Origin: Bacteroidales bacterium
Lineage (GTDB): Bacteria > Bacteroidota > Bacteroidia > Bacteroidales > UBA12077
Length of the DNA stretch: 64,000 nt
Reading direction: 5' to 3'
Assembly: GCA_003446015.1 (NCBI GenBank)
Contig: DMBU01000091.1
Location: 9,380 to 73,379, forward strand
The position numbers and the translations under genes are program-made. The stretch's first letter is position 1. Every line of letters starts with the position of its first letter. The notes beneath the pieces were generated by a model. It ran no database searches, was not told where the DNA came from, and saw only the letters and a program-made list of their open reading frames with translations. Shown piece by piece: positions 15,534 through 51,679 of the stretch.

Positions 15534-15549
15534 TTCTTATAAATTATTT

Positions 15550-18229: not shown

Positions 18230-18383
18230 TATTCAGGAGATTCCGGCAATTAAACATCTGATGTTTTTTGTACATCAGGTATTCTTGCCTGATGATTCTT
18301 TGTTTGCACAGACATTTTTAACATATGAAACAAGTATATAAGAATTAGCAGAAATCCAACGTACAGAAATGTGCGTTGTACTG

Positions 18384-18424
18384 AAAAAAAGATCCGATGA
18401 TTTAAATCATCGGATCTTTTTTTC
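18384..18424. terminator. Bidirectional intrinsic terminator between the GH13 gene and the GGDEF gene
   Basis: Long perfect stem agatccgatgattt/aaatcatcggatct flanked by A7 and T7 runs. Confidence 0.7.
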
Positions 18425-18488
18425 AGAGACTTTTCAATAACCCTTCTTATTTATTAACCTAATTTAGCTATGAACTAAATTCTTGAAA

Positions 18489-19076: not shown

Positions 19077-19108
19077 TATTTATTGATTCTGAGACAAAAT
19101 GAATTAAT

Positions 19109-21868: not shown

Positions 21869-21895
21869 CCTAACTGATAATTAAATTTAAACAAG

Positions 21896-23788: not shown

Positions 23789-23806
23789 CGGTTTTAATTT
23801 TGGGGT

Positions 23807-23832
23807 AAAAAAAGCCCGCAGTTGCGGGCTTT
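23807..23832 (-). terminator. Intrinsic terminator/attenuator inside the starch locus, between the susF-like gene and GH13
   Basis: GC-rich stem agcccgc/gcgggct with a 4 nt loop, followed on the minus strand by T6. Confidence 0.7.
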
Positions 23833-23849
23833 TAAATATCACAATTTGC

Positions 23850-25562
23850 TTATTTTACTGCAGTAACAGTGGCAAAAAACTTGTCTGTTCCACTCAAATC
23901 TAAAGTAACGTCATATGTTCCTGCACCTGGAGTTGCAAGATTATCAGGGGACCCATTAATTAAATTATCTAATGATCCACCTAAATTAATATCCCAGCCA
24001 TCATTTGCCCTAAACTTATACGAACCAGATGCCAAGAAATCAACTTGACCTTCCCAAACTTTATTTGTTGAGTTATAAGTTAAATTAACATCTGTGTCCC
24101 AACTACCAGCTTGAGCATCACCAATAACTCCCCAATCCGTTTTTGTTAAAACTACTGTTTTATTAAACATATCAAATTTGATTTCATAAAATCCAGGTGT
24201 AGAATATGTCGGTAGGCCAGATACAATTATATTACCTCCTCCATCAGCAATTTCACCAGGCGAGGCTCCTGCTCCCCAAAGTCCATCCCAACTATCTCTT
24301 TCAACTAATATTTTAATCTCAGATGCATCATCTAAATATTGATATCCAACATGTATATTATTACCAAGAGCAGCTAGGTATTGTCCATGATTATTCCAAC
24401 CATTAATAGATCCAACTAACCAAATGTTAGCCGCTTTAATAGTATATGTTCCTTGTTTGATATTTACCACAATTTTATAAGTATCACCTCCTCCATCGAA
24501 TGTAATATTATCATTTTTACCTTCTGGGCCTAAAATACCTGAATTTCCCATTCCTCCAATATTAGCCCAATTTGGCGACCATTCACCATTTCCAATAACA
24601 AATTTAAATTGAGCTTCATCAGGTAAAACAATTTCATAAGTAAAAACACCTTCTGAAAGCTTGGTCATTTCAAATTGGGGTGGATTAGCCTGAGCATCCC
24701 AGCCACTTATACTACCTACTAAGTATAATTGATCATAGTCTTCAACATATGTATGTCCATTATGCTCATATGTTTCTATAATAAGAGTACTTGTTAAATA
24801 ATCAGCTTCGATTTTATACCAACCTGTTGCTCCTGTAAAAGTGAAGTTTTTCATTTCATCTCCTGCACTTGCAACATTATCTGGTAAATTAACTAAACTT
24901 TCATAGTTGTATGTATTATCTACTGTATCTTGTTCCATTAAGAATCTGAACATTTTATTATTTTCAAGATATGTAAATACCGTAAACTTACCATCTTCTT
25001 TATATGTAGCTAAAGCACTACCAGCATCGTAACCAACTGTTGTTGCACTTCCAAATATGTATAATTCATCAGGAACGGGTACATCCTTATATGTTGTAAC
25101 CGTGAATGAAAGGGGATCCGTAAATAATGAATCTAAATCTTCATGAACAAATGCTTTAATCCTTAATTGTAAGTCATATGTTTGAACAGGACTATATCCA
25201 TTTGCAAGAAGTTTAGTGTTTAGGTTACCTTCAGTAATTATTATTGAAGTTTCAGAAGTTGTACTAGCCTCAATTACAAAATAAGAGCTAAAGTTGCTAC
25301 CTGAATCTGCAACTTGAACAGAATAATGTGTAATTAAACCTTGTCCCTCGTATAATTGAGCAGCAGTCCATACTAATGTATCCCAGGCTAAATCTTCATT
25401 TTCCTTAAGTAAAGTAACTACGGGGTTGTCAATACCATTAGTTATGGCCTGAGCTACATTGTTATAACTTGGTGGTGCCGGTGGATTATCAAAATCATCT
25501 ACATCACAAGAATAGATAGATACAGCAACCAAGACTATCAATAAATATTTTATTTTATTCAT
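23850..25562 (-). CDS. SusF/SusE-family outer-membrane starch-binding lipoprotein (multi-module)
   Basis: Lipobox IYSC. The position is directly downstream of susD and the susE-like gene. It contains repeated modules (Y/W)(I/L)(V/F)GS..GW. Confidence 0.7.
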   Translation of the reverse strand: MNKIKYLLIVLVAVSIYSCDVDDFDNPPAPPSYNNVAQAITNGIDNPVVTLLKENEDLAWDTLVWTAAQLYEGQGLITHYSVQVADSGSNFSSYFVIEASTTSETSIIITEGNLNTKLLANGYSPVQTYDLQLRIKAFVHEDLDSLFTDPLSFTVTTYKDVPVPDELYIFGSATTVGYDAGSALATYKEDGKFTVFTYLENNKMFRFLMEQDTVDNTYNYESLVNLPDNVASAGDEMKNFTFTGATGWYKIEADYLTSTLIIETYEHNGHTYVEDYDQLYLVGSISGWDAQANPPQFEMTKLSEGVFTYEIVLPDEAQFKFVIGNGEWSPNWANIGGMGNSGILGPEGKNDNITFDGGGDTYKIVVNIKQGTYTIKAANIWLVGSINGWNNHGQYLAALGNNIHVGYQYLDDASEIKILVERDSWDGLWGAGASPGEIADGGGNIIVSGLPTYSTPGFYEIKFDMFNKTVVLTKTDWGVIGDAQAGSWDTDVNLTYNSTNKVWEGQVDFLASGSYKFRANDGWDINLGGSLDNLINGSPDNLATPGAGTYDVTLDLSGTDKFFATVTAVK

Positions 25563-25583
25563 ATTGATTAATTTTTAAATTAT

Positions 25584-26363
25584 TTACTCAACTAATGCCA
25601 TAGCAATAGATTTTGCATCTAAATCTACCGTTATTTTATAATTACCAGTTTCTCCATCGAACCTATAGTTAGGATCAGAATGAGTAGTTTCATCAGCTAA
25701 AAGTTCAGACACTTCTCCTGTAAAGTAATCGTATCCCCATTGGTCAGCATCCCAAGAAGGTTCCTTAAAGAACCGGAAGTGTCCTCCATTAGTAAACTGA
25801 GTTGTTGTTTCATATTTATTTGCTGCAACACCTGTTACTTCGACAGCCAAATCCGTATTCCAGTCACTAACAGCCGTACCTATCATATAAATTGGGTCAT
25901 AAGCGTTATAAGCTGTTATAGTGAAGCTAAGAACATTTGAATAAACAGGTTCATAACTAGTTCCAATAGAAGCAGACACTCGAATTTCAATTGATGTAGA
26001 AATCTCAGGCTTAAATCCATAATTTAAAAAAGCTGAATTAAAAGTTTTCACAGTAACGGTATCTGTAAATTCATTAATTATTGTATAGAATTCTTTTGCG
26101 TCAGCAAAATTATTTGTGGCAGTATCCATTTCAAGTGTATAAGTCACTGGGGTAACAACTCCATAATCTACTTCTGTCCAGGCAAATACACAAAACGTGT
26201 CAGTTTCATTTTCTTCTAACAATACATATTCATCGTTCGTAAAAACTTGTAAAGTACTTCCTGCAATATCTTTATTTAGAACCGCAGTAGGATCTTCATC
26301 TTCGCAAGCAATAAACGAAAACAGAATTAGTATAAACGTAATAATTATATTATATTTTTTCAT
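25584..26363 (-). CDS. SusE-like outer-membrane lipoprotein
   Basis: Lipobox FIAC. The call rests on size and on position immediately after susD. Confidence 0.6.
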   Translation of the reverse strand: MKKYNIIITFILILFSFIACEDEDPTAVLNKDIAGSTLQVFTNDEYVLLEENETDTFCVFAWTEVDYGVVTPVTYTLEMDTATNNFADAKEFYTIINEFTDTVTVKTFNSAFLNYGFKPEISTSIEIRVSASIGTSYEPVYSNVLSFTITAYNAYDPIYMIGTAVSDWNTDLAVEVTGVAANKYETTTQFTNGGHFRFFKEPSWDADQWGYDYFTGEVSELLADETTHSDPNYRFDGETGNYKITVDLDAKSIAMALVE

Positions 26364-26381
26364 TTTATATTTTTTTTAATA

Positions 26382-27986
26382 TTAATATCCGGGGTTTTGA
26401 ACCAAGTTAGGATTTGCACTAATATCAGATGAAGGAATTGGGAACAAATTATATTTGGAATCTGTTGATCTACCTTCTTTGATTTTCCCTTTCCAGGGCC
26501 ATAAATAACTATCACCAGTAAATTTTCCGAATCTAATTAAATCGGTTCTTCGGTGACCTTCCCAGTACAATTCTCTTGCACGTTCATCAAGAATAAAATC
26601 TAAGGTAAGCTGACCAGTGGTAATATCTCCAGAGTCATCACCGTAGGCTCTTCCTCTTATTAAATTGATATAATCACGAGCTGTACCTATATCACCTCCA
26701 ACACCACCTCTTAAAACAGCTTCAGCATACATTAAATATACATCCGCAAATCTAAATAGTGGGTAATCTGTATCAGTCCATTCATCGCTTGAAGCCATAT
26801 CGCCAGTAGAAGTAACATTTTTAAATTTTACCAGAGAATAACCTTCTTCAAACACACCAATATCTTCAATATCTAAAGTATGATCCTGAATATATACCAT
26901 TGCCCTCCATGTTTCATTATTATCGCTGGCATCTTGGAATGTTCTTGCTCTTTGATCAGTATTTAATGTAAATTTCTCGATTAAGCTTCTTGTAGTTCGA
27001 ATACCTCCCCAACCACCGGCTACACCATAATTCTCAAGAAGGTTTGTCATTGTGCCTCCAATTGCAGCATGAACCAGATAATTTGTACCACCCCATGATT
27101 TTGTAAAAGCACCATCATGACGAACAGCAAAAATAAGTTCGTTAGTTAAAGTATGATTATCAGCTAAAAAAAGATCGGCATAGTTACCTGCTAAAGAATA
27201 ACCGGCATCAATAATTTTATTACAATAAGTTATACATTCAGTGTATTTACTTTCACCTATGTAAACCTCAGCATTTAGATATAATTTAGCCAACAGCATC
27301 CATGCAGCAGCTCTGTCTGCTCTCCCATAATCACTTGTTCTTGGTTCAGACATTATGGTTTCAATAGCTAATAATTCCGATTCGATATATGAGAAAAGAT
27401 CCGCTCTATTTGTTTGAATTGGGAAAAATGCGCCCGGAAGATCATCTTCGGTAACAAAAGGAGGATTTGCAAAGAAATCCATTGCATACCAATAAGATAA
27501 TGCTCTTAAAAATCTGGCTTCTGCAGAATGAACCTGATATTGTTCCATCCCTTCAGTTCTTCGCACAAATTCGTTACAAATCGTTACTTCGAACATTAAT
27601 CTGTTATAAAGTCCGGCAATAAATAAATCGGCAGAAGACCATGTATGATAATGAAAATCTTTAATCGTTTTATCATTCCATCCAACAACAGCTTCATCTG
27701 TGGTAAGTTCCTGAGCCATCCATAATTGGCGTAAATAGTGAGATTCACCTTCGTCTCCGGTTAAAATATCCTGAGCACCACTGGGACCTTGTTGTCCTGT
27801 AACTGACAAACCAGCATAGCATTTTGCTAACAACTGAAGATATGCCGAGTCGCTTGAAAAAACATTATTTGGAGTTAATACATCTTTATCTAAGGGTTCT
27901 GTATCAAGATCATTAATACAAGAAACAAAGAAAGATATTATTAACATTAATCCGAAATAAGTTATTTTATTATATTTTATTTTCAT
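26382..27986 (-). CDS. susD: SusD/RagB-family nutrient-binding outer-membrane lipoprotein
   Basis: 534 aa with lipobox FVSC. It has typical SusD blocks (R..RA.SY..M..F.., LF.AD.Y, RARELYWEGHRR.DLIRF) and directly follows susC. Confidence 0.9.
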   Translation of the reverse strand: MKIKYNKITYFGLMLIISFFVSCINDLDTEPLDKDVLTPNNVFSSDSAYLQLLAKCYAGLSVTGQQGPSGAQDILTGDEGESHYLRQLWMAQELTTDEAVVGWNDKTIKDFHYHTWSSADLFIAGLYNRLMFEVTICNEFVRRTEGMEQYQVHSAEARFLRALSYWYAMDFFANPPFVTEDDLPGAFFPIQTNRADLFSYIESELLAIETIMSEPRTSDYGRADRAAAWMLLAKLYLNAEVYIGESKYTECITYCNKIIDAGYSLAGNYADLFLADNHTLTNELIFAVRHDGAFTKSWGGTNYLVHAAIGGTMTNLLENYGVAGGWGGIRTTRSLIEKFTLNTDQRARTFQDASDNNETWRAMVYIQDHTLDIEDIGVFEEGYSLVKFKNVTSTGDMASSDEWTDTDYPLFRFADVYLMYAEAVLRGGVGGDIGTARDYINLIRGRAYGDDSGDITTGQLTLDFILDERARELYWEGHRRTDLIRFGKFTGDSYLWPWKGKIKEGRSTDSKYNLFPIPSSDISANPNLVQNPGY

Positions 27987-28007
27987 GATTCTTGTTTTTA
28001 ATATAGT

Positions 28008-30974
28008 TTAAAATCTTACACTTAATCCAAAAAGATAAGTTCTTGGTCTTGGATAAATATTGTTATCTATTCCTCCGTATATTTCAGGATCTAATCCATC
28101 ATATCCTGTTATTGTAAATGCATTTTGAACGGTGGCATATAATCTTACACCTAAATCAACATTATTTAACATTGGTTTTAATAAATCATCAAAGGAATAA
28201 CCAAGGGTGATATTATCAACTTTTAGGAATGAAGCATCATGAATATAATAATCTGAATTCGGTTGCGCTGCATTAAACTCTGTATTATATATATCTGTAG
28301 ATAGGTTGCCAAGATAATCATTTGTAAAAATATTATCGTATCGTGCATTATCCGAGCTGATATTATCATAAATATAATTATTCAGATTTGCCCTGGCCGA
28401 TAGGTTAAAATCAAAGTTTTTGTATTCTAACCTGGTAGAAAAACCAAATATCATATTTGCTGCAGGACTTTCTGCAAAATACTTATCATCTTCATTTATA
28501 ATACCGTCATTGTTCCTGTCAACATAAGCACCCTCAATAGGTTTCCCATTGATATCATAAACTTGTTCGTATACAAAGAAAGTATTAATCGGGTAACCAA
28601 CAACATGTTTCTGAATTGTGTTTCCCGTAGCTCCAGAAATGCTTCCAACATCTACACCTTTGTAGTTGGGATCATCAAACAATGTAAGTTTTGTAATTTC
28701 ATTATCGTTATAGCTGAAATTTGCTCCTATTTCCCAGAACAAATCTTTCTTATTATAAGCTATTCCGGTTAATTCTATTTCGAATCCGGTATTTTCCAGA
28801 TTACCTACATTCGTTTTAAGTTTGTCGGCGAAATTGCTTCCTATTGCAATAGGAATTTCGTTCAATAAATCCTTTGTTTCTCTTTTATAAAACTCTAATG
28901 ACCCATTAAGTCTGTCTTTAAAAAAGCCAAAATCCAAACCAATATTATAGGTTGTTGTAGTTTCCCATTTAATATTAACATCATAAGCACTAGGTTTAAT
29001 AGTATAAAATGCATGATCACCAAATGAATACATTGCATTTTGATCGCTTACAACAAAAAGAGGCATGTATGAATAATAATCGTCACCAATATCCTGCTGC
29101 CCTGTTTGTCCATAACCTAATCTAAGTTTTAAGTTACTTATTGCGTTAATATTTTTCATGAAATCTTCATCTGAAATTCTCCATGCTAAAGCTAATGAAG
29201 GGAATAAACCCCATCTGTTATCTTCTGAAAATCTTGAAGAACCATCTTCTCTAACAGTAGCTGTTAATAGATACTTATCCATAAAAGTATAATTTAACCT
29301 ACCAAAGAAAGATATTAAATACAGTTCTTTTTCACCAGAAACCAATTTAGCTTCACCATCTTTAAACAAGATATTGTCTTCGTTGGTATCCCAGAAATGT
29401 TGCCATGAATATCCTCCCATTACATCAATCTTGCTATTGATATTATCAAGATCTTTTTTGTAATTTAGGAAAAAGTCTAAAAGGGAATTCTTTTTTTCTT
29501 GTGTATAATGCTTTTTTATCTCGGTTCTTCCGTAGGTATACCATGAAGCTTTAGGATCAATATCTTTATCTCCCTGAGAATCTGAATAATCATATCCCAA
29601 TTTCACATTAGCTTTAAGTTCAGGTAAAAAATGGAATTTATACTCAAGTTGTAAATCACCAATAAATCTATTAACTATTGATTCATCATAAGTATAATCT
29701 AAAAGGGCTACTGGATTACTTGTAGCTAGTGGGTTGGGTGTATTACTGCTATTTAGCCATGCATAATAACCTCCATACAAACCTGTTTGATTATATACAG
29801 ATTGAGTTGGGTCCATTCTTACTGCACTTCCTATCGCTCCTTTATCGGCAAATCTGTTTTCAATATAAGAATATTTTACACCAACATCAATCTTTAAATG
29901 ATCATCTAATAAAGAAGGACTTAATCTAATATTTCCGGTAGCCCTTTCATTATTGCTGGTTTTTAATATACCATCTTTATTTGAATAACTTCCTGAAGCT
30001 CTGTAAGGGATATTATATAATGAGCCGGATATACCAAGATTATGTTCTTGTCCAAATGCCGTTTTAAAAATCTCATCCTGCCAATTTGTATTGGAAGATC
30101 CAAGTTTAGCAACCGCACCAGTTGAAATTGTGCCGGCAGTTTCCAAATCAGTTACTAACTGAGTATATTCAGCAGCAGAGAGGACATCAACAGTTTTAAT
30201 GTTTTCGCTTAACGAAAATTTAGATGAATAATCTATTGTCATTTCCTTACCAAGCTTACCCGTTTTTGTAGTAATAAGAATTACCCCATTTGATGCTCTG
30301 GAACCATAAATAGCAGTAGCTGAAGCATCCTTTAAAACTGTAAAAGTCTCAATATCATCAGGATTAATGGTATTTAAAACGTTACTCATACCAGCAATAT
30401 CAGAGTTACCAACTGGTATTCCATCAATTACATACAATGGGTCGTTACTTGCTGTTAACGAAGAACCTCCACGGATTCGTACCGTTGATTTACTTCCAGG
30501 TGCACCTCCTTCTGAGGTAATTGAAACACCGGCTATTTTACCAGATATTAATTCCTGAGCCGAAGTTATTGCTCCCTGATTAAAATCTTTTGTAGAAACT
30601 GTTGTTATAGCACCAGTTGCATCACCTTTTCTAACCTGACCATAACCAATAACCACAACCTCATCTAAATATTCCACTTGCTTTTCAAGTGCAATATTTA
30701 TTTCTGTTCTTTCATTAACAACTACTTCCTGTGCTGCATATCCTACGTAGGAGAACACCAGAATTGCATCTTTAGGGACTGTTATTTCATAGTTCCCGTC
30801 AATGTTTGTAATTGCACCTATCCCCGAATTTTTTTCTAAAATAGTAACACCAGGTAATGAAATGCCTTCTTCGGCATCGGTAACATTACCCGTTACTTTT
30901 AATTGTGCTAACAAAATTCCTGGAATGAGAATTTGAAAGAAAATTAAAATTAATGTTAATCGAATTTTTTCCAT
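28008..30974 (-). CDS. susC: SusC/RagA-family TonB-dependent outer-membrane transporter
   Basis: A carboxypeptidase-regulatory-like N-domain (VTGNVTDAEEGISLPGVTI..), a plug (IRIRGGSS..PLYVIDG) and a beta-barrel ending in ..FGLSVRF. The start is set at MEKIRLTL, the signal peptide. Confidence 0.9.
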   Translation of the reverse strand: MEKIRLTLILIFFQILIPGILLAQLKVTGNVTDAEEGISLPGVTILEKNSGIGAITNIDGNYEITVPKDAILVFSYVGYAAQEVVVNERTEINIALEKQVEYLDEVVVIGYGQVRKGDATGAITTVSTKDFNQGAITSAQELISGKIAGVSITSEGGAPGSKSTVRIRGGSSLTASNDPLYVIDGIPVGNSDIAGMSNVLNTINPDDIETFTVLKDASATAIYGSRASNGVILITTKTGKLGKEMTIDYSSKFSLSENIKTVDVLSAAEYTQLVTDLETAGTISTGAVAKLGSSNTNWQDEIFKTAFGQEHNLGISGSLYNIPYRASGSYSNKDGILKTSNNERATGNIRLSPSLLDDHLKIDVGVKYSYIENRFADKGAIGSAVRMDPTQSVYNQTGLYGGYYAWLNSSNTPNPLATSNPVALLDYTYDESIVNRFIGDLQLEYKFHFLPELKANVKLGYDYSDSQGDKDIDPKASWYTYGRTEIKKHYTQEKKNSLLDFFLNYKKDLDNINSKIDVMGGYSWQHFWDTNEDNILFKDGEAKLVSGEKELYLISFFGRLNYTFMDKYLLTATVREDGSSRFSEDNRWGLFPSLALAWRISDEDFMKNINAISNLKLRLGYGQTGQQDIGDDYYSYMPLFVVSDQNAMYSFGDHAFYTIKPSAYDVNIKWETTTTYNIGLDFGFFKDRLNGSLEFYKRETKDLLNEIPIAIGSNFADKLKTNVGNLENTGFEIELTGIAYNKKDLFWEIGANFSYNDNEITKLTLFDDPNYKGVDVGSISGATGNTIQKHVVGYPINTFFVYEQVYDINGKPIEGAYVDRNNDGIINEDDKYFAESPAANMIFGFSTRLEYKNFDFNLSARANLNNYIYDNISSDNARYDNIFTNDYLGNLSTDIYNTEFNAAQPNSDYYIHDASFLKVDNITLGYSFDDLLKPMLNNVDLGVRLYATVQNAFTITGYDGLDPEIYGGIDNNIYPRPRTYLFGLSVRF

Positions 30975-31096
30975 CTTGCAATTTTTATTTTTAGGGTTAA
31001 ATTTTCCCCTAAAGTTATAAAAACCGTTATCAATTGTCAAATACAAGAATATATATATCAGACATTTACAAACACGTCAATTAACTACAGGAACTA

Positions 31097-41797: not shown

Positions 41798-42775
41798 ATG
41801 AATAAAATCAATTTAAGAATAATTTATATGGGCACACCTGATTTTGCGGTTGAGCCTTTAAAACTATTGGTTGAAAACAATTACAATGTTGTTGGAGTTG
41901 TTACCAATCCCGATAAACCCGCGGGGAGAGGACAAAAACTACAAGAGTCGGCAGTAAAGAAATATGCAATTAGTCAGAATTTAAATATTCTGCAACCCCA
42001 TAAATTCAGAGATGAATCCTTTTTAAATGAACTAAAAGAATTAAATGCCGATTTGCAAATTGTTGTTGCTTTTAAAATGCTGCCAGAAGTAGTTTGGAAT
42101 ATGCCCCGAATTGGCACTTTTAATCTACACGCTTCATTACTGCCGCAATACCGGGGAGCAGCACCTATTAACTGGGCTATTATAAATGGAGAAAGTAAAA
42201 CGGGAGTAACAACTTTTTTTCTAAAACACGAAATAGATACCGGGAATATTATTTTTCAGGAAGAAGTTCAAATCCTGGAAGATGATGATGCCGGAAGCAT
42301 CCACGACAAATTAATGTATAAAGGAGCAAACCTTGTTTTAAAAACTGTAGATTCCATTCTTACAGGTAATTATCCCCAGCTTAATCAGAATATTTTAGTT
42401 GAAGCTGGTACTTTAATTAAACATGCCCCTAAAATTTTTAAGGATGATTGTAAAATAAACTGGAATAAGGATTTAAATTCAATTCATAACCATATTCGTG
42501 GCTTAAGTCCATATCCTGCTGCATGGACAGAGATGGTTAATAACGAAGAAGAAATTCAAATCAAGATATTTAAATCAGAAAAAGAATCAGGGAATCATAA
42601 TTTCACAACAGGTAAAATTATTTCAGATCAGAAAACCCATTTAAAAGTTGCAGTAAAAGGAGGATTTGTTCATTTGAAAGAATTACAATTGGCTGGAAAG
42701 AAAAGATTAAGAGTTGAAGACTTCTTAAGAGGTTTTCAGGAAATAAATGAGTATAATTTTTCAACAAAAGTTTGA
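41798..42775 (+). CDS. fmt: Methionyl-tRNA formyltransferase
   Basis: Motifs YMGTPDFAV, NPDKPAGRG and NLHASLLPQYRGAAPINWAI. Confidence 0.9.
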   Translation: MNKINLRIIYMGTPDFAVEPLKLLVENNYNVVGVVTNPDKPAGRGQKLQESAVKKYAISQNLNILQPHKFRDESFLNELKELNADLQIVVAFKMLPEVVWNMPRIGTFNLHASLLPQYRGAAPINWAIINGESKTGVTTFFLKHEIDTGNIIFQEEVQILEDDDAGSIHDKLMYKGANLVLKTVDSILTGNYPQLNQNILVEAGTLIKHAPKIFKDDCKINWNKDLNSIHNHIRGLSPYPAAWTEMVNNEEEIQIKIFKSEKESGNHNFTTGKIISDQKTHLKVAVKGGFVHLKELQLAGKKRLRVEDFLRGFQEINEYNFSTKV

Positions 42776-42814: not shown

Positions 42815-43879
42815 ATGGTAAATAATTACGGTTCCGATCAAAAAACTGCATTGCAGGCAAAAATTGATGCACAAAAAATTGCCTTCGCTCCCATTGTATT
42901 TCAAGCAGTAAAGTCACTCAGAGATTTCAAAATCCTTGATTTGTTAAATAAACATACCGAAGGCCTAAGCCCTATTGAAATTTCAAAAGAAACAGGTATA
43001 AGTGAATATGGAGTAAAAGTATTGCTCGATGCAGGATTAAGTGCCGAAGTTGTAATTCGAAGTGATAATAAATATCAATTAACAAAAACAGGGTATTATT
43101 TTATTAATGATACGATGACAACCATCAATATGGATTTTGTAAACGATGTCTGTTATGAAGGAATGTTTTATTTAAAGGACTCGATAAAAAATGAGAGTCC
43201 CGAAGGGCTAAAAGTTTTTGGTAACTGGCCAAGTATTTATCACGGACTATCTGAGCTGCCAGAACAAGTAAAAAAAAGCTGGTTTGCATTTGATCATTTT
43301 TATTCCGACAATGTTTTCATTTCAATTTTACCATTAATCTTTAAAAATAATCCCAAGAAAATACTTGATGTTGGTGGGAATACAGGAAGATTCTCATTTC
43401 AATGTGTTCATTATAATCCTAAAGTTGAGCTTACTATTATGGATTTACCCGGACAGCTTAATGTGGCTTTACACAATGCAAAAAAAGAAGGTATAGAGAA
43501 ACAAATAAAAGGCTATCCATCAGACATATTAGATCATAACAAGGAGTTCCCAAAAGGATTTGATGTAATTTGGATGAGTCAGTTTCTCGATTGCTTTTCA
43601 GAAGAAAATATCCTGCAAATATTAACAAGAGCCTATCACTCTATGGATGAAAACGCAAGCTTATTCATTCTGGAGACCTATTGGGACCGGCAAAAATTTG
43701 ACATTTCTACGTTCTGTCTAAATAATACGTCTTTATATTTTACAGCAATGGCGAATGGGAATAGTCGAATGTATCATTCCGACGACATGATCAGGTTAAT
43801 TGAAAAAGCAGGATTTAAAATTAGTAACATACAAGATGATTTGGGTATAAGCCACACCTTAATTGAATGTGTTAAATAG
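42815..43879 (+). CDS. Class I SAM-dependent methyltransferase (O-methyltransferase-family-2-like, N-terminal winged-helix dimerisation domain)
   Basis: SAM motif ILDVGGNTGRFS with acidic MDLP downstream. The N-terminal ~100 aa resemble the dimerisation domain of this family. Confidence 0.65.
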   Translation: MVNNYGSDQKTALQAKIDAQKIAFAPIVFQAVKSLRDFKILDLLNKHTEGLSPIEISKETGISEYGVKVLLDAGLSAEVVIRSDNKYQLTKTGYYFINDTMTTINMDFVNDVCYEGMFYLKDSIKNESPEGLKVFGNWPSIYHGLSELPEQVKKSWFAFDHFYSDNVFISILPLIFKNNPKKILDVGGNTGRFSFQCVHYNPKVELTIMDLPGQLNVALHNAKKEGIEKQIKGYPSDILDHNKEFPKGFDVIWMSQFLDCFSEENILQILTRAYHSMDENASLFILETYWDRQKFDISTFCLNNTSLYFTAMANGNSRMYHSDDMIRLIEKAGFKISNIQDDLGISHTLIECVK

Positions 43880-44292: not shown

Positions 44293-45327
44293 CTATTTAT
44301 CAAAATTTTCAATTACCGGAGTTTCTTCTATAACATCGGAGTGTTCTTTATAATCTCTCAACCACAGTTTTTGCCCAACAGCAGGTTCAGAACCTTCGTC
44401 CATCAAGTTTTTTTCGTACAACTTTTTAATTTTTATCCCATACATCTGTGAAATGGCATACATCGATTCACCTTCTTTTACCTCGTGAAAATCAAATCCG
44501 TGTTCGGCTTTATTTCTTTTGGGCTGGATATACAGAATTTGGCCTTCAGTTAATTTGCTGTTTTCTTCTATCTCGTTATACTTAAAAAGCTCCCATGGAA
44601 GCATTCCTAATTCTTCAGTAATACTTTTAAAGCTATCGCCTTTTTTAACAATGATATAATCAATTCTGTTCTTACTAAATACTCGATGCTTCTCGGTATA
44701 TATCTTAAAATTATCGACATCGGCCAGAACCACTTTTTGTGAATCCTGAACAAATTCTTCAGTTTTATAATTTGATAAACTTCCTCCCTGATCAAAAACG
44801 TAAAGTTGATTATCTTCAATGATCCTTATTAATAATGTTGCATATGTTTTACTGGTTGCATAACCGGCTCTTTGCAGTCCTTTTGCCCAGGATTTATAAT
44901 CGGTAGGATTAAGATCAAACAAAAATGAATATCGTGTTCCTTTAACTATAAAATCCGAATGATCTTTATATGATTCGTATACAGTATTGTATTTTCTAAA
45001 ACATTCATTTCTTTTATCATCATCGTGGTAAACTTTTCCTCCCTTCCATCCGTTATGGCATTTTATACCAAAGTGATTGTTTGATTTTCTTGCCAAGGTA
45101 CTATTACCATTATCCGATTCGAGCATAGCCTGAGCCAGAGTAATGCTTGCAGGGATCCGACTCCTTTTCATTTCCTTAATAGCCAGTTCATTAAAGTTAT
45201 TTATATAATCTTTACGATCAATAGAAATATAATTATTAGTTGATTTAGATGATGATTTTGGTACCTGCTGTACCTTACATGAAATTACGAATAAGGGTAT
45301 TATCAGGAATATTAGCTTTTTTGTCAT
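44293..45327 (-). CDS. GH73 glucosaminidase-domain lipoprotein with two LysM domains
   Basis: Lipobox VISC. Glucosaminidase block IPASITLAQAMLESDNGNS. Two LysM-like repeats are present (Y.V.KGDS...I; H.VKEGESMYAISQMYGI). Confidence 0.8.
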   Translation of the reverse strand: MTKKLIFLIIPLFVISCKVQQVPKSSSKSTNNYISIDRKDYINNFNELAIKEMKRSRIPASITLAQAMLESDNGNSTLARKSNNHFGIKCHNGWKGGKVYHDDDKRNECFRKYNTVYESYKDHSDFIVKGTRYSFLFDLNPTDYKSWAKGLQRAGYATSKTYATLLIRIIEDNQLYVFDQGGSLSNYKTEEFVQDSQKVVLADVDNFKIYTEKHRVFSKNRIDYIIVKKGDSFKSITEELGMLPWELFKYNEIEENSKLTEGQILYIQPKRNKAEHGFDFHEVKEGESMYAISQMYGIKIKKLYEKNLMDEGSEPAVGQKLWLRDYKEHSDVIEETPVIENFDK

Positions 45328-45347
45328 TTTTTTTTTGTTATTTTGAA

Positions 45348-45355
45348 CAAATGTA
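45348..45355 (-). promoter_or_regulatory. Candidate -7 box (TACATTTG) for the GH73 gene
   Basis: The plus-strand sequence caaatgta lies 21 nt upstream of the start codon. Confidence 0.4.
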
Positions 45356-45408
45356 AAAAAAATATTTAATGTTGAATTTGATATTTTTTTCTAAAGGAAC
45401 AACTTCAT

Positions 45409-45891
45409 ATGATTAAACGTGAAATAAAATCAATATTGTTTGATTACAATTCTCTTGCCGAACTTGATGAAAAATATCAGGAATTAATTCAAAAAGCAAA
45501 AGAAGCTGCAGAAAACGCTTATGCTCCTTATTCAAAGTTTAATGTAGGTGCAGCTGTATTACTTGAAAACAATGAAATTATCCAGGGAAACAACCAGGAG
45601 AATGCAGCATATCCATCGGGTTTATGCGCTGAGCGAGTGGCCATCTTTTATGCTAATTCCAAATATCCTAATATCCCTATTAAGGCTATAGCTGTGACAG
45701 CAAGTACAGAAAAAGGATTCATAACTGACCCGATTCCTCCTTGTGGTTCATGTTTACAAGTTATTTTAGAAAGTGAAAAAAGATCTGGAAAACCTATTGA
45801 AGTATTGCTATACGGACAAAATAAAATAACTATTGCGGATAGCGTTATACAGTTTTTACCCTTATACTTTAATAAAGAAATGCTAAAATAG
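45409..45891 (+). CDS. cdd: Cytidine deaminase
   Basis: Zinc motifs CAERVAI and PCGSCLQV. 160 aa. Confidence 0.85.
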   Translation: MIKREIKSILFDYNSLAELDEKYQELIQKAKEAAENAYAPYSKFNVGAAVLLENNEIIQGNNQENAAYPSGLCAERVAIFYANSKYPNIPIKAIAVTASTEKGFITDPIPPCGSCLQVILESEKRSGKPIEVLLYGQNKITIADSVIQFLPLYFNKEMLK

Positions 45892-45894
45892 ATA

Positions 45895-47496
45895 TTAGTA
45901 TTTTGATAATTTTTTAAGGAATTCTGCATTAGGAACTATACCATATTCATCATCAGAATATTCCGGTTTGAGCCTGTTTACAAAATACATATCTAATTCG
46001 ATATTATTTTTAACTTCTATTTTGCCTCTATAAGTGCAGTCAAAATAATCTTTAATAAATTCATACGTATCACCAGAAACATTAACTTTTCCCACTTCGC
46101 CCGACTGTTCCATCCTATTGGCTTTATTTACCGCATCACCCCAAATATCATATGCAAATTTCTTTTTCCCAATTACACCTGCAATAACTTCTCCTGTATG
46201 TATTCCCAATCGCAACTCCCATGCAGTTTCGTTTTTCATTTTCTCTTCTTCTGCATATTCCTTCATAAATTTTTGAATCTCTAATCCTGCAAGAGTAACA
46301 TCAATGGGGTTACTTTTATTTCTTAAAGGTAAGCCCCCAGCACACATATATGCATCACCAATCGTTTTTATTTTTTCAATATAATGTCCTTCAATTATTT
46401 CATCAAATTTTTGGATATACATATTTAACTCTTCAACCAAATCCTGACTCTCCATTATTCCTGTTAGCTTCGAAAAGTCTTTAAAATCAGTAAATAATAT
46501 AGAAACTAACTTATATTGTTTTGATTTTGCGAAACCTTTTTTCTTTAATTGTTCTGCCGTTTCAAAAGGAAGAATATTTAATAAAAGCTCATCGGATTTT
46601 TTCTTTTGTTCTTCGCTAAGTTCTTTTTGCTTTTCAATTTCCTGACGTTGTTTTTCCAACAGTAAATTTGAATTTTCTAGATGCTCAGTTAGTGTAACTA
46701 AGCTCTCATTTTTAGCTTCGAGTCTTTCTTCTGCTTCTTTTAGTTCTGTAACGTTGGATTCTATTGCGATATACTTAATAATCTGATCCTGTTCATTATA
46801 AACAGGAGTTAGGGTTGTTTGAATCCAGATTGGCTGTCCGTCTTTTGTTTGCCATTTTTTTTCATAAGCGGAACTTTCGGCACCTTCCCTGCATTTTTGT
46901 ATGGCATCATTCAACTTAGGATTATTCTCAGGATCAAATAACAATGATTCAAACTTCTTCCTAAACTCTTCCAGCGTGTAACCATACATTTTTTCAAATC
47001 CTTCATTAACCCATTCAATTTTGTTTTTATTACTAATAATAACAACGCCAGTTGCAGTTTTACGCGCAACAATTGAAAGTTCACGAAGCAGTTCATGTTC
47101 AATGTATATATCGTGTTGAAAATCTCTTCTACTTTCAGCAGCTTCAATACGCATTAAGAGTTCATCTTTGCTATAAGGACTTCTGATAAAGTCAACAATA
47201 CCGTATTCAAATACTCTATCAAAGTTTGTTCGTGGAGAATAATCGGTAATTAATATTACAGGAATATCATGTGTTAATTTATCCTGTTTTAATGACATTA
47301 TACTTTCTATTCCATTTCTTGCAAGCGATTCTACACTAATTAAAATTATATTTGGTTGAACAAGGAGTGCAGAATTGTAGATTTCGCTTCGCGCTGATTG
47401 TGAAATTCCAAATCTATCTTTATCATCTTTAAGAATATCTTGCAAATAAGAAAATGCATTTCCTTTATCATCTGCAATTAATATCTTGTAAATCAT
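45895..47496 (-). CDS. Degenerate-receiver / PAS / coiled-coil / class III adenylate cyclase
   Basis: REC-like residues 1-125 carry Ser at both the phospho-Asp and the conserved Lys positions. The PAS-PAC region is VVIISNKNKIEWVNEGFEKMYGY..WIQTTLTPVY. The cyclase domain is VSILFTDFKDFS..KTIGDAYMCAGG..GIHTGEVIAGVIG..YDIWGDAVNKANRME. Confidence 0.85.
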   Translation of the reverse strand: MIYKILIADDKGNAFSYLQDILKDDKDRFGISQSARSEIYNSALLVQPNIILISVESLARNGIESIMSLKQDKLTHDIPVILITDYSPRTNFDRVFEYGIVDFIRSPYSKDELLMRIEAAESRRDFQHDIYIEHELLRELSIVARKTATGVVIISNKNKIEWVNEGFEKMYGYTLEEFRKKFESLLFDPENNPKLNDAIQKCREGAESSAYEKKWQTKDGQPIWIQTTLTPVYNEQDQIIKYIAIESNVTELKEAEERLEAKNESLVTLTEHLENSNLLLEKQRQEIEKQKELSEEQKKKSDELLLNILPFETAEQLKKKGFAKSKQYKLVSILFTDFKDFSKLTGIMESQDLVEELNMYIQKFDEIIEGHYIEKIKTIGDAYMCAGGLPLRNKSNPIDVTLAGLEIQKFMKEYAEEEKMKNETAWELRLGIHTGEVIAGVIGKKKFAYDIWGDAVNKANRMEQSGEVGKVNVSGDTYEFIKDYFDCTYRGKIEVKNNIELDMYFVNRLKPEYSDDEYGIVPNAEFLKKLSKY

Positions 47497-47734
47497 AGAA
47501 TTTGAAATAGAGTGTTACTTAAAAAGTTTATCAGTTAAAAATATAACTTTTAAACTAAAAAAATCTCTATTTAACTTTTTTTTTAACTACTCCATATTTA
47601 CCATTCATAATATCTTTTATACCTTTCATCAAAAACCGACTTAAATAAGAAAAACAAGATCAAAATAAGTTACGAGTTCGTGCTAAATTTCATTTACAAT
47701 CATTATTTTTATTTTTCCAAATGGGGAAAGTAAT

Positions 47735-48973
47735 ATGATTTTTAGATTATTGTTATTAAGTGAAAGCAAAAAGGAGATTGATAAAATTACTTCTTTACTA
47801 ATTTCTGAATTTCCCGACATAACTCTTGAGATAAGGGTTCCAGATATTGAAATTCTAAATGAAATTGAATCTCTTTCTCCTGATGTAATAATTTTTGATG
47901 TAGACAATCCCAAAAATCATTTTAATGAAAATTTAGATCTTACAAGGAATATTCTAAGTATTAAACAAATACCAATTATTGTTATATCATCAACAAACGA
48001 TTATAAAAAAATATATAAAACAGGAGCAATAAATTTTATTCAAAAGCCTTATTCTGAAATTACTTTAGTATCAAATTTTAAAACAGCTACTAATCTTATA
48101 AGTGTATTAGATTCAATAAATATCAAAGAAGCTGAAATTGAAGAAAAGGATAAGAAGATTAACTTACAAATTGAAAGCGAGCTTAAGCAACGTGAGATTA
48201 TTATCAGGAAAAATAAGGAAATTATGGCAGATATTCGATATGCCAGCAGAATACAACATGCTATTTTACCAAATATAGATTTTATTAATGAAACTATTCA
48301 CGAATACTTTATTTTACATCAGCCTAAAAGTCATGTTAGTGGTGATTTTTATTGGGTTTCTTGCTTAGGTAATAAAAAGATAATTGCTGTTGGTGATTGT
48401 ACAGGACATGGATTATCTGGCGTATTAATGCATATGTTAGGTTCTGTATATTTAAACGAAATTGTTTCAAAGGGAGTTTTTTCTACTGCAAGCGATATCT
48501 TAGAACAACTTCGTGATAATATTATGAGATCACTAAATCAGACCGGGGAATCAGGAGAAGCGCAGGATGGACTTGATATAGCGCTTTGCATTGTTGATTG
48601 TGAGAAAAAAAAGCTGCAGTTTGCTGGGGCCAATAATCCGCTTTACATTGTTAAAAAAAATGATTTAATTGAAATCAAAGGCGACAGAATGCCCGTTGGA
48701 ATACATATCAATTTTGACAAACCCTTTACAAATCATTTAGTAGATTTAGAAAGTAATGATAAAATATATTTGTTCTCGGATGGTTATGCTGATCAGTTTG
48801 GCGGGCCTAAAGGCAAGAAATTTAGATACAAACAATTTAAAGAATTACTTCTTACTATTTGCCATGAACCAATGAATATTCAAAAGGAAATTTTAAATAA
48901 TACTCATGATAAATGGAGGGGCTCAACTGAGCAAATTGATGACATTCTTGTTTTTGGAATAAAAATAAAATAA
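47735..48973 (+). CDS. Receiver-domain SpoIIE/PP2C protein serine phosphatase
   Basis: The REC domain has Asp55 (VIIFDVDNP), IVISS and FIQKPY. The SpoIIE domain has A..IQ.AILP, SGDFYW, VGDCTGHG, FSDGYADQFGG and QIDDILVFGIK. Confidence 0.85.
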   Translation: MIFRLLLLSESKKEIDKITSLLISEFPDITLEIRVPDIEILNEIESLSPDVIIFDVDNPKNHFNENLDLTRNILSIKQIPIIVISSTNDYKKIYKTGAINFIQKPYSEITLVSNFKTATNLISVLDSINIKEAEIEEKDKKINLQIESELKQREIIIRKNKEIMADIRYASRIQHAILPNIDFINETIHEYFILHQPKSHVSGDFYWVSCLGNKKIIAVGDCTGHGLSGVLMHMLGSVYLNEIVSKGVFSTASDILEQLRDNIMRSLNQTGESGEAQDGLDIALCIVDCEKKKLQFAGANNPLYIVKKNDLIEIKGDRMPVGIHINFDKPFTNHLVDLESNDKIYLFSDGYADQFGGPKGKKFRYKQFKELLLTICHEPMNIQKEILNNTHDKWRGSTEQIDDILVFGIKIK

Positions 48974-48999
48974 CTTTAACCTTTGTAAATTTTATTGAA

Positions 49000-50745
49000 G
49001 TGAAAAAAATAACTAAAATCATACTTTCTTTTTTTATCACTTATCTTTTTTTCTGTTATTCTGTTATATCGCAGGATATTCCTTCGTCGATTAAAAATGA
49101 ACTACAAGCTTACGAAGCTAAAATTGTACAATATAAAAAAGAAAATAATTTACAACTTGAGTTAGAGTTTCTTAATAAAGCAGCATTTTTATGTTGGGAT
49201 AATCAATTGTTTAATAAGGCTATTGATCATTTTAAAAGAGGAGTTGAAATAAACGAAAAGCTTAACAACCAAAATGGTATAATGTTAAGTGCAAATTACA
49301 TTGGGATGATCTATAATGATACTCAAGATTACAACTCTGCTATTACCTATTTTCGAAAAGCCCTTGAAATAAACAGAAAACTAAATAATAAGGAAAATAT
49401 ATCATCTTCACTTGTTAACATTTCACAATCCTTTCAGCAACTTGCCAATTATGAAGAATCAAACAAATGGGCTCTGGAGGGAGTTGAAGTAGCTAAAGAA
49501 TTAAATAATTTAAAATTAGTTAGAAGCTTTTATGGGATATTAGCAAATAACTTTCAAAGTCTTGGAAACTCCGAAAAAAGCATTGAATATTTTGATTTGT
49601 TTGCTTCCATAGATAAATACCTTAAAAAAGAAGAGATTAAGGATATCAAACAACAATCTGAATCTGAAGTACAAAAAGCCAAGCAAGAGAAAGAGATAAC
49701 AAAGCAAGAGCTTGTTAAACAAACCGACAAGTTAAAAGAAACGGAGACTTCACTTGCCCAGGTTGAAGAAGTAACCCGCGAACAACAAATGCAATTAGAA
49801 CTTCAAGAATCAAAAATAAGAGAACAGGCAGCACAATTAAAATTTGAACGATTAGTAAGAAGAGTCATTATTGGTATTCTAATTATTTTCTTTGCTTTTT
49901 TTACAATTTTAATGGTTTTATACAGAAAAATAAGAATCCAGAAAAATCAAATTGAAGAACAGAGAGATATTCTGGATATCCAAAATAAAAAAATAAATGC
50001 AAGTATTCAGTACGCACAAAATATTCAAAGAGCAATACTTCCGGTTAAAAATCAAATTGAAAATCTATTTGAAAGTTTTATAATATATCGACCCAAAGAT
50101 ATAGTCTCAGGAGACTTTTATTGGTTTGCCCAAACACAAGACACAGCTTTCCTTGCTGCTGTTGATTGCACTGGGCATGGAGTCCCTGGTGCATTTATGT
50201 CAATGATAGGAAATAGCCTCTTAAACGAAATTGTTTTAGAAAAAAAAGTTGTAGAACCAGCAAAAATATTATCTTTATTAAACGAAAAAATAATTGAATC
50301 GTTAAGACAGGAAGAAACAGAGAACAAAGATGGAATGGATGTTTGTTTTATTTCGATTGATTTAAAATCAAAACAAATAAATTTTTCCGGAGCAAAACGA
50401 CCATTATTTATATTTAAGAAAAAAACCTCTGAATTTGATGAAATTAAGGGAGACAGAATATCTATTGGAGGAGTAAAAAACACTAAAGAAATTGAACAAT
50501 TTAATAATCACATTATAAATACTGAAAAAGGAGATATTTTATTTTTATCTTCAGATGGTTTAACAGATCAAAATAATTCAGAACGAAAAAGATTTGGAAG
50601 TAATAAGCTGAAAGAAATAATTTTAAATAATATTTCGGAACCAATGGCTAAACAGAAGGAAATTATTGAGAATGAGCTAAGCGATTTTCAGCGAGATGAA
50701 GAGCAACGTGACGACATTACTTTAATTGGAATAAAAATTAATTAA
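49000..50745 (+). CDS. Signal peptide / TPR repeats / coiled coil / TM / SpoIIE-PP2C protein serine phosphatase
   Basis: TPR-like repeats with (A/G)..Y..A(I/L)..F..(A/G)(L/V)EIN.KL. A TM helix VIIGILIIFFAFFTILMVLY. The SpoIIE domain has AQNIQRAILP, SGDFYWF, AVDCTGHG, LSSDGLTDQ and QRDDITLIGIK. GTG start. Confidence 0.85.
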   Translation: MKKITKIILSFFITYLFFCYSVISQDIPSSIKNELQAYEAKIVQYKKENNLQLELEFLNKAAFLCWDNQLFNKAIDHFKRGVEINEKLNNQNGIMLSANYIGMIYNDTQDYNSAITYFRKALEINRKLNNKENISSSLVNISQSFQQLANYEESNKWALEGVEVAKELNNLKLVRSFYGILANNFQSLGNSEKSIEYFDLFASIDKYLKKEEIKDIKQQSESEVQKAKQEKEITKQELVKQTDKLKETETSLAQVEEVTREQQMQLELQESKIREQAAQLKFERLVRRVIIGILIIFFAFFTILMVLYRKIRIQKNQIEEQRDILDIQNKKINASIQYAQNIQRAILPVKNQIENLFESFIIYRPKDIVSGDFYWFAQTQDTAFLAAVDCTGHGVPGAFMSMIGNSLLNEIVLEKKVVEPAKILSLLNEKIIESLRQEETENKDGMDVCFISIDLKSKQINFSGAKRPLFIFKKKTSEFDEIKGDRISIGGVKNTKEIEQFNNHIINTEKGDILFLSSDGLTDQNNSERKRFGSNKLKEIILNNISEPMAKQKEIIENELSDFQRDEEQRDDITLIGIKIN

Positions 50746-50749
50746 CCTA

Positions 50750-51280
50750 ATGACTGATACGAATATCGTTTCATTTATGACAAATAAAACAATATTATCT
50801 TATAAAGGACCTTTTTACATTGAGCTAATATCTGTTTTTGGAACAAATATTCGAAACTTTAACGATGCATATAGCAATGCTCGAAAAAAACTTTTTAAGA
50901 TTTTTATTGAACTTTCGCAAAACGTTTCGAATTATTCTGAAAATTATCATATGGTCAACAATGTCCAAAGAATTGGTGTTGGAGAACTTACTTTAAAAGA
51001 TTTAGAAAAAGCTTATCTTTTTACTACAAAAAATCAAGTAAAAAAGACCGATGCAGAGATTCTTGCTGAACGATGTGAAATAGTAAATGCATCAGACCAG
51101 TTAAAACTGAGAGAATTAAAAAGAGAACAGAGATTAAATTCACCGGGAGAAAAATTTGGTGCCAGAATTGGACTAATCCAGGCAGTAATGCTATCAAATA
51201 ATACACTTGAATATCACATTGAAAAGATAAACGAAGACTTTTCTTATTTTTCGTTAACCGTTAAAATAGATAAATATTAA
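50750..51280 (+). CDS. SiaB-like small GHKL-fold protein kinase (RsbW-type)
   Basis: 176 aa. The N-terminus ILSYKGPF, the N-box-like IELSQNVSNYS and the G2-like GEKFGARIGL are present. It sits between PP2C phosphatases and a DUF1987 gene. The assignment is from motif memory, not a profile search. Confidence 0.55.
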   Translation: MTDTNIVSFMTNKTILSYKGPFYIELISVFGTNIRNFNDAYSNARKKLFKIFIELSQNVSNYSENYHMVNNVQRIGVGELTLKDLEKAYLFTTKNQVKKTDAEILAERCEIVNASDQLKLRELKREQRLNSPGEKFGARIGLIQAVMLSNNTLEYHIEKINEDFSYFSLTVKIDKY

Positions 51281-51292
51281 ATAAAACATATT

Positions 51293-51679
51293 ATGGAAAA
51301 TATTACTTTAACAAGCTCCCCTACTACTCCTTATTTCCCAGAAGTAAATTTCAATGTTGAGAAAGGTACTTGCGAAATAAAAGGTGAATCATATATGGAA
51401 GAGACTTACAAGTTTTATCTCCCGTTAATAAATTGGATTAAAGATTATACTAAAAAAATCAAAAAGCCACTCGAAGTAAATGTTAAACTTATTTATCTTA
51501 ACACAAGTTCTACTAAATGTGTATTAGATATATTAGAAATTTTAAAAGATTTCGAAGATGATGGTGGAACAGTAAAAGTAAATTGGTATTATGATAAATC
51601 TGATCCTGATATGGTTGATGAAGTTGAAGACTTTGAAGCAGAATCAGGAATGAAAATTGAATTAATAGAATTTGAATAG
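51293..51679 (+). CDS. DUF1987 / SiaC-like regulatory phosphoprotein
   Basis: 128 aa with PEVNFN.EKG.CEIKGESY.E....FY.PLI.WIK.Y......L.VN.KLIYLNTSSTKC..DIL..L......GG.V.VNWYYD..D.DM....EDF. This is the characteristic DUF1987 pattern. Confidence 0.7.
   Translation: MENITLTSSPTTPYFPEVNFNVEKGTCEIKGESYMEETYKFYLPLINWIKDYTKKIKKPLEVNVKLIYLNTSSTKCVLDILEILKDFEDDGGTVKVNWYYDKSDPDMVDEVEDFEAESGMKIELIEFE

Follow-up and report, generated by a model that had tools for sequence, protein, structure and literature searches.

A probable two-input SiaABC-type partner switch in Bacteroidales and the adenylate cyclase beside it, probably a neighbour and not its target

What does a Sia-type partner switch control in Bacteroidales, which are largely without cyclic di-GMP (c-di-GMP) signalling? 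To our knowledge a Sia switch has been characterized in one organism only, with a c-di-GMP synthase and biofilm formation as its outputs. The question is raised by a locus in a Bacteroidales bacterium (assembly GCA_003446015.1, contig DMBU01000091.1), of which positions 9,380–73,379 were analyzed; this stretch of 64,000 nucleotides (nt) is termed the window. Four co-directional genes in the window encode two PP2C phosphatases, a SiaB-family kinase and a SiaC-family phosphoprotein. A class III adenylate cyclase is encoded divergently from them, and the initial annotation suggested that this cyclase may be the output partner of the switch. The present analysis finds the phosphatase-kinase-phosphoprotein set to be a conserved unit in Bacteroidales. 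The genes at 47735–51679 probably constitute one operon encoding a SiaABC-type partner switch, and the cyclase, although adjacent, is probably not the target of the switch.

The first gene (47735–48973, + strand) encodes a PP2C phosphatase of 412 amino acids (aa) with a SpoIIE domain and a receiver, termed REC-PP2C. The second (49000–50745, +, with a GTG start) encodes a 581 aa phosphatase with TPR repeats, a transmembrane helix and a SpoIIE domain, termed the TPR phosphatase. These are followed by genes for the 176 aa SiaB-like kinase (50750–51280, +) and the 128 aa SiaC-like protein (51293–51679, +). The gaps between the four genes are 26, 4 and 12 nt. The cyclase gene (45895–47496, − strand) encodes a 533 aa protein with pseudo-receiver, PAS and class III cyclase domains, and is separated from the REC-PP2C gene by a 238 bp divergent intergenic region (47497–47734). 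A check of the open reading frames reproduced all five genes and their spacings as first described, and the earlier domain calls were all borne out by Pfam and NCBIfam profile searches.

The SiaC-like protein belongs to family PF09345, formerly DUF1987 (136.9 bits, cutoff 24.5, E-value = 3.4e-40, residues 12–126). Compared with SiaC of Pseudomonas aeruginosa (PDB 6KKO, 6KKP and 7E6G) by phmmer, it gives an E-value of 4.8e-19. The segment LYLNTSS is aligned residue by residue with the P. aeruginosa sequence, T71 corresponding to T68, and N70, T71 and S72 are the same in all 27 homologues compared. T68 of SiaC, the residue phosphorylated by SiaB, slots between the stalk helices of SiaD, and its phosphorylation governs partner binding (PMC8457831). 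Thr71 in the LNTSS motif is the predicted phospho-acceptor in the Bacteroidales protein. An AlphaFold2 model made from the 27-homologue alignment has a predicted local distance difference test score (pLDDT) of 89.1 and displays the six strands and three helices of the STAS-related SiaC fold, with Thr71 at the start of helix 71–89, i.e. at the N-terminus of α2. Foldseek comparison of this model with 6KKP, 6K4F, 6KKO and 7E6G gives template modelling (TM) scores of 0.87–0.91 and root-mean-square deviations of 1.4–1.8 Å. The next-best fold is SpoIIAA/STAS, with a TM score of about 0.5. A hypothetical protein from a Bacteroidales metagenome-assembled genome (MAG) has the identical sequence (100%).

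The surface of the SiaC-like protein bears on its partner. Its net charge is −13, and the α3 helix (DPDMVDEVEDFEAE) is far more acidic than that of P. aeruginosa SiaC (NERVAELAEEFRED). This suggests a binding partner other than that of Pseudomonas SiaC. The α2/α3 surface (N70-T71-S72 and DPD..E..DF.xE) is nearly invariant across clades with and without a cyclase neighbour, and this favours a partner that all the clades share.

The 176 aa protein displays the DUF6272 domain (1e-26, 93.6 bits against a cutoff of 26.6) and scores above the cutoff of the NCBIfam SiaB_fam_kinase model NF038262 (108.6 bits, cutoff 85). It matches P. aeruginosa SiaB over its full length (PDB 6KKO chain A, from the SiaB-SiaC complex; phmmer E-value = 1.1e-6), and its IE..QN and G..GAxxGL boxes line up with those of chain A. 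The profile searches thus place the two small proteins in the SiaB-family kinases and in DUF1987/SiaC, the families for which they had been proposed.

The two phosphatases are differently gated, as had been claimed: one is a REC-PP2C and the other has the architecture TPR-transmembrane-PP2C. REC-PP2C has a SpoIIE match of 4e-17 and matches the C-terminal region of the NCBIfam SiaA model (169.5 bits). Its receiver in the window scores 25.8 bits, below the Pfam cutoff of 30.2, and S9-E10 stand at the position where most orthologues carry an acidic DD pair. The receiver is clear in the orthologue of locus L048 (79.6 bits). Among 49 orthologues Asp55 is found in 48, and Ser/Thr85 and Lys104 are found in all 49; the receiver is considered genuine because these residues are retained. 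In the same orthologues the PP2C metal motifs (SGDFY, GHG, DG and DD) are invariant or nearly so, and the metal-binding motifs are kept in both window phosphatases. REC-PP2C is proposed to be the phosphorelay-gated input phosphatase of the switch.

The TPR phosphatase displays TPR_12/TPR_8 repeats at residues 97–167, a SpoIIE domain (1.6e-24) and a match to the SiaA model over residues 309–580 (190.7 bits). Its N-terminal region resembles the TPR sensor of Porphyromonas gingivalis FimS (NF053520, 2.9e-14). A simple hydropathy scan gives hydrophobic segments at 7–25 and 284–311, the latter followed by the basic flank YRKIRIQK. These features support a SiaA analogue with a predicted N-terminal hydrophobic segment, extracytoplasmic TPRs, a transmembrane helix and a cytoplasmic PP2C domain. 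In one clade the membrane TPR phosphatase has an added cytoplasmic PAS domain (L048:7250–9442, and L060 with a PP2C of 746 aa), giving a TPR-TM-PAS-PP2C architecture of 730–746 aa. The sensor part of this phosphatase therefore appears to be modular.

REC-PP2C and the TPR phosphatase share 41% identity across the linker helix and the PP2C domain, and both match the SiaA model only from about position 388 to 657, which corresponds to these two regions. A third PP2C phosphatase, of which the C-terminal end is found at 3–383 (+) where the gene is cut by the window start, had also been noted. It is a real SiaA-type phosphatase (SpoIIE 2e-10, SiaA model 68 bits) and is 37% identical to the TPR phosphatase. 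SiaA is the best NCBIfam match of all three window PP2C proteins. No SiaB or SiaC paralogue follows the third gene, and its product may be an extra input into the same switch.

None of the components reaches the NCBIfam equivalog cutoffs for the Pseudomonas proteins themselves. The SiaA equivalog NF038263 has a cutoff of 700 bits, against 169.5 for REC-PP2C and 190.7 for the TPR phosphatase; the SiaB equivalog NF038264 gives 60.8 bits (cutoff 225) and the SiaC equivalog NF038265 gives 98.1 bits (cutoff 150). The Bacteroidales proteins are thus family members and not demonstrated functional equivalents. With SiaA-like PP2Cs, a SiaB-family kinase and a SiaC-family phosphoprotein carrying the acceptor Thr, the identification of a Sia-type partner switch stands.

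In the proposed mechanism the SiaB-like kinase would phosphorylate the SiaC-like protein at Thr71, as homology and the LNTSS motif indicate. Both PP2C phosphatases would strip this phosphate, the two inputs converging on the SiaC-like protein. The membrane-anchored enzyme may read an extracytoplasmic cue through its TPR repeats, and the cytoplasmic one may be gated through phosphorylation of its receiver by a histidine kinase. When unphosphorylated, the SiaC-like protein would bind and control an effector encoded in trans. In Bacillus, two phosphatases converge on one phosphoprotein in the RsbU/RsbP-RsbV system. As far as the searchable literature on DUF1987 shows, a two-phosphatase input is new for a SiaC-type system.

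Is the switch a unit by itself, or is it part of a larger conserved gene set? One genome per species was scanned with a pattern, which gave 145 loci encoding a SiaC-like protein. The best 80 were taken with 10-kb flanks, 1.26 Mb in total, and 62 of these have enough upstream sequence for upstream neighbours to be assessed. The core of TPR phosphatase, SiaB and SiaC, usually with REC-PP2C, is a conserved unit in at least 75 species-level Bacteroidales genomes. Of the 80 loci, 78 have SiaB, 78 have SiaC and 75 have PP2C genes, and the loci short of a component are truncated contigs. The TPR phosphatase is present in each locus whose contig reaches far enough. Both phosphatases are found in 45 of the 62 assessable loci and the TPR phosphatase alone in the other 17. 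This conservation as a unit far exceeds chance. A subclade of cyclase-adjacent loci (L022, L023, L026, L029–L032 and L045) has lost REC-PP2C and retains the TPR phosphatase, SiaB and SiaC; thus the second phosphatase appears dispensable.

The neighbourhoods of the module differ by clade, are stable within a clade and are made of housekeeping genes. In one clade Dus, a CAAX protease and aminopeptidase P are upstream and fumarate reductase subunits are downstream. In another, an ADP-ribosylglycohydrolase and a cupin are upstream, and PPDK, PEPCK and PlsY are downstream. A further clade has an LTD/Big_5 protein upstream. In the clade of the window the order is methyltransferase, glucosaminidase/LysM, cytidine deaminase (cdd), cyclase, module, BCAT and M3 peptidase. 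A gene cluster (c51) that recurs near the module in two clades encodes an aldehyde dehydrogenase, and hence is not a signalling partner. Two loci titled as other organisms, L032 (Thiohalospira sp.) and L057 (Polyangia bacterium), bear the same module, and L032 shares the flanking genes as well. These are probably mis-binned Bacteroidales contigs in the respective MAGs.

A module that is self-contained, without a conserved neighbour, is also what might be seen if the switch were of the RsbW type. The SiaB-like kinase would then itself be the effector, holding a sigma factor or other protein inactive, and the SiaC-like protein would be only its antagonist. The SiaC fold is related to STAS, SpoIIAA being the second-best structural match; a SiaB-SiaC complex exists in P. 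aeruginosa (PDB 6KKO); and the two-phosphatase input of RsbU and RsbP is the classical design of a sigma-factor switch. The logic of RsbU/RsbP-RsbV-RsbW of Bacillus subtilis is indeed the same, i.e. two sensory PP2Cs act on one phosphoprotein and are opposed by a small GHKL-type kinase, and RsbY of Bacillus cereus, a REC-PP2C, likewise has a receiver-gated PP2C as input. The components differ, however. The phosphoprotein is of the DUF1987/SiaC family and not STAS, the kinase is of the DUF6272/SiaB family and not RsbW, and no linked sigma factor gene was found in the 80 loci, where the recurrent flank clusters were inspected and the singleton flanks are partly annotated. In the one Sia system that has been characterized it is the phosphoprotein, not the kinase, that carries the output (PMC8457831). 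The conserved acidic α3 fits either binding role and does not discriminate. The RsbW-type explanation is accordingly rated improbable.

The cyclase is the next candidate for the output. It displays a Guanylate_cyc domain (1.4e-48, 165.4 bits), PAS_9 (1.4e-15) and Response_reg (33.7 bits); a helix that precedes the catalytic domain weakly matches the HNOBA type. D337, D381, K377, D450, N457 and R461 are invariant in 13 orthologues. The purine-specifying Lys (in KTIGDAYM) and Asp (in YDIWGD), from which ATP use had been predicted, are invariant in these orthologues also. Judged by its residues, the enzyme is catalytically intact and of the ATP type. It shares the Guanylate_cyc domain and the metal, transition-state and Lys/Asp residues with class IIIa adenylate cyclases that have PAS and signalling-helix/cyclase-transducer elements, and differs from them in the addition of an N-terminal pseudo-receiver. 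This receiver is degenerate, with Ser54 at the acceptor position and Ser106 at the Lys position. Lacking both the acceptor Asp and the Lys, it would not be under ordinary phosphotransfer control.

If the cyclase were the target, the unphosphorylated SiaC-like protein would bind its stalk or its pseudo-receiver and the output would be cyclic AMP (cAMP), whether in this clade alone or, in trans, across the Bacteroidales. The divergent adjacency, seen in the window and in 30 of the 62 assessable loci, is consistent with this, as are the intact ATP-type catalytic domain and a receiver withdrawn from ordinary phosphotransfer. The known target of SiaC is likewise a nucleotide cyclase, related in fold and contacted at its dimeric stalk, and the authors of that work proposed that DUF1987 proteins modulate adjacent proteins (PMC8457831). 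A real cyclase link would make this the first known partner switch with cAMP as its output.

The distribution of the adjacency argues otherwise. The cyclase does not adjoin the module in 32 of the 62 loci. A neighbour-joining tree of SiaB and SiaC places the cyclase-adjacent loci in a single clade. Synteny there extends over the entire neighbourhood, and BCAT is conserved as a module neighbour to the same degree as the cyclase. The adjacency is therefore taken to be one evolutionary event. Within the clade two loci break the pairing. In L025 the PP2C-SiaB-SiaC genes are kept and the cyclase adjacency is broken, the module being flanked by a sodium:solute symporter, an aldehyde ferredoxin oxidoreductase and a MacB permease. 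In L044 an aldehyde dehydrogenase gene separates a receiver-less cyclase from the module. Non-conservation of the adjacency in relatives, half of a refuting condition that the initial annotation had named, is thus observed; its other half, a GGDEF or different partner kept elsewhere together with the module, was not found.

The reverse comparison starts from the cyclase. Full-length orthologues with 46%–61% identity on long contigs were taken and seven neighbourhoods were read. The module is beside the cyclase in only one of these, the orthologue with 61% identity; no module is present within 8 kb of the other six (46%–53% identity). The glucosaminidase/LysM neighbour is kept in all seven, cdd in four, and fmt and ribBA in several. 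The order in L085 is PanB-RluA-cyclase-cdd-LysM-fmt, and in L083 it is PanB-RluA-Lnb-BCAT-[SiaC-SiaB-PP2C-PP2C]-cyclase-cdd-LysM. This looks like insertion of a block beside a pre-existing cyclase gene. The window has fmt at 41798–42775, and therefore the same fmt-LysM-cdd backbone. Among the best 120 of about 7,900 matches, no cyclase homologue lies on the multi-megabase contigs of module-only loci, which speaks neither for nor against co-occurrence in a genome. Neither an independent juxtaposition nor a cyclase pairing that outlived decayed synteny was found among the 62 loci and the seven orthologue neighbourhoods.

The window region 44293–47496 also pairs the cyclase with the glucosaminidase/LysM gene, and in related loci (L081–L091) a cytidine deaminase gene often lies between them. 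This pairing with a peptidoglycan hydrolase-like gene is far deeper than that of the cyclase with the Sia genes and may hint at the functional context of the cyclase. A methyltransferase gene (42815–43879, +), present at this place in this clade alone, separates fmt from the LysM gene; its product is near the cutoff of the NCBIfam FlxJ family (534 against 560 bits). FlxJ is tied to flexirubin-type pigment biosynthesis.

The cyclase sequence gives no sign of the pairing either. The stalk varies in length (a 30-residue deletion in P0180, and 7 residues in P0196 and P0202), is equally conserved in the non-adjacent orthologue P0192, and displays no features specific to adjacency. The stalk motif of SiaD, R74..K77..R80-I-S82-D-R-Y-Q86..R90-D91 (PMC8457831), has no convincing match by eye in the coiled coil of the cyclase, i.e. 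no counterpart of R..K..RISDRYQ was seen. Absence of this motif is not decisive, as the surface of the SiaC-like protein differs here. Nor is receiver degeneracy correlated with adjacency: S, A, F, D, E or N may occupy the acceptor position whether or not the module is nearby. A special kinship between the receivers of the cyclase and REC-PP2C was considered as well and was rejected. The family hidden Markov model gives 60.8 bits, and the similar values in non-adjacent orthologues (47–55 bits) point to generic receiver homology.

The 238 bp spacer contains two sequence blocks, TTCATCAAAA and TTAAAAATATAA, which are limited to the closest relatives (14–17 of 33 cyclase-adjacent loci). They are absent from all 37 module-only loci and from all 10 cyclase loci in the set L081–L091. 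As these blocks accompany neither the module nor the cyclase elsewhere, they were rejected as marks of either. Scans of the spacer for sigma-70 promoters and intrinsic terminators gave no excess over shuffled sequences, the consensus used being unsuited to Bacteroidota.

Taken together, the single syntenic clade, the 32 non-adjacent loci, the breaks in L025 and L044 and the cyclase's own LysM/cdd/fmt synteny do not bear out the cyclase as output partner. It is likely that the cyclase belongs independently to the fmt-LysM-cdd backbone and came to lie beside the module through one lineage-specific rearrangement. The hypothesis is weakened, interaction in trans being possible, and a cAMP output through this cyclase is considered unlikely. 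There is likewise a small chance only for direct gating of a class III cyclase as a cAMP switch or, more broadly, for control of a wholly new class of effector by the acidic SiaC-like protein.

A diguanylate cyclase encoded at a distance is a further possible target. The only characterized target of SiaC is a GGDEF enzyme (PMC8457831), and the window does encode a genuine GGDEF domain, in a small membrane-anchored protein of 195 aa (18489–19076, −; PF00990, 115.6 bits). The protein displays IDIDRFKNYND, an SGDEF signature, an upstream RKSD and one N-terminal transmembrane helix, and its gene is 27 kb from the Sia cluster. The SiaC-like protein would activate this or another such enzyme in trans, as an unlinked form of SiaABCD. 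However, only about 16 residues lie between the transmembrane helix and the GGDEF domain, and the long stalk that carries two binding motifs in SiaD is missing. A metagenome scan gave one close relative (66% identity), the others being generic at 30%–38%, and the protein is thus much less conserved than the nearly invariant surface of the SiaC-like protein. No SiaB- or SiaC-like genes are near any of 80 GGDEF loci, and phmmer searches with PleD and WspR probes together with a motif search found no GGDEF open reading frame in the 1.26 Mb of the 80 module loci. This negative is meaningful since the same probes detect the one GGDEF protein of the window. Poorly conserved and never linked to SiaB/SiaC, the small SGDEF protein was rejected as a conserved trans partner, and activation of a diguanylate cyclase in trans is held to be very unlikely. 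The original statement that no GGDEF output is present holds for the cluster and for the 80 related loci; it does not hold for the window.

c-di-GMP enzymes are uncommon in Bacteroidales. The SGDEF gene lies at the edge of a Sus-like starch/maltodextrin utilization locus (13127–31046). Genes of this locus encode GH65 (13127–15439), PFK (15550–16647), three GH13 alpha-amylase-family proteins (16859–18229, 19109–21868 and 21896–23842, the second with a C-terminal sorting domain of the type IX secretion system) and a SusE-like protein (23850–25562).

On the gene content, the family assignments, the SiaC fold, the conservation of the module and the distribution of the cyclase adjacency, all of which are observed here, the favoured explanation is a two-input, self-contained SiaABC-type switch with its effector encoded elsewhere, outside the conserved module. 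This is considered likely. Several points weigh on the other side. The location of the effector outside the module is deduced by exclusion. The cyclase and module families are both widespread in Bacteroidales, and the two may co-occur and interact in trans. An output through the cyclase is mechanistically plausible since it has a putative dimeric coiled-coil stalk before a palm-type domain, like SiaD (PMC8457831). The pseudo-receiver of the cyclase could act as a protein docking domain, and the shared 238 bp divergent region would allow co-regulation in this clade.

Compared with SiaABCD of P. aeruginosa, the Bacteroidales switch shares the SiaC fold (TM score about 0.9), the LNTSS motif, a SiaB-family kinase and a membrane PP2C homologous to the catalytic region of SiaA, as well as the gene order phosphatase, kinase, phosphoprotein. 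It differs in that siaD, which encodes a long-stalk GGDEF enzyme and is co-transcribed in P. aeruginosa, is not found in or near the operon here or in the 80 loci. Most loci have a receiver-gated PP2C in addition, and for a sensor the membrane phosphatase has a TPR array, which does not match the N-terminal region of the SiaA model. The HptB-HsbR-HsbA-HsbD system of P. aeruginosa and BgrSTUWV-BgrR of Sinorhizobium meliloti are partner switches that control diguanylate cyclases, and these are of the type in which a phosphoprotein regulates a nucleotide cyclase by protein contact (PMC8457831). They employ STAS proteins with GGDEF targets, whereas the phosphoprotein here is of the SiaC type and a cyclase target is not established.

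The case is a caution against deriving function from adjacency, as the cAMP idea stems from a single rearrangement that the members of a clade share by descent. The phosphatase-kinase-phosphoprotein core is conserved without SiaD, mostly with a receiver-gated second PP2C, and in unrelated housekeeping neighbourhoods. Since the core is conserved without a GGDEF enzyme, SiaC-type phosphoproteins must have at least one class of target other than the SiaD type. With a nearly invariant surface and a large family, Bacteroidales are a clean place in which to seek a new SiaC target.

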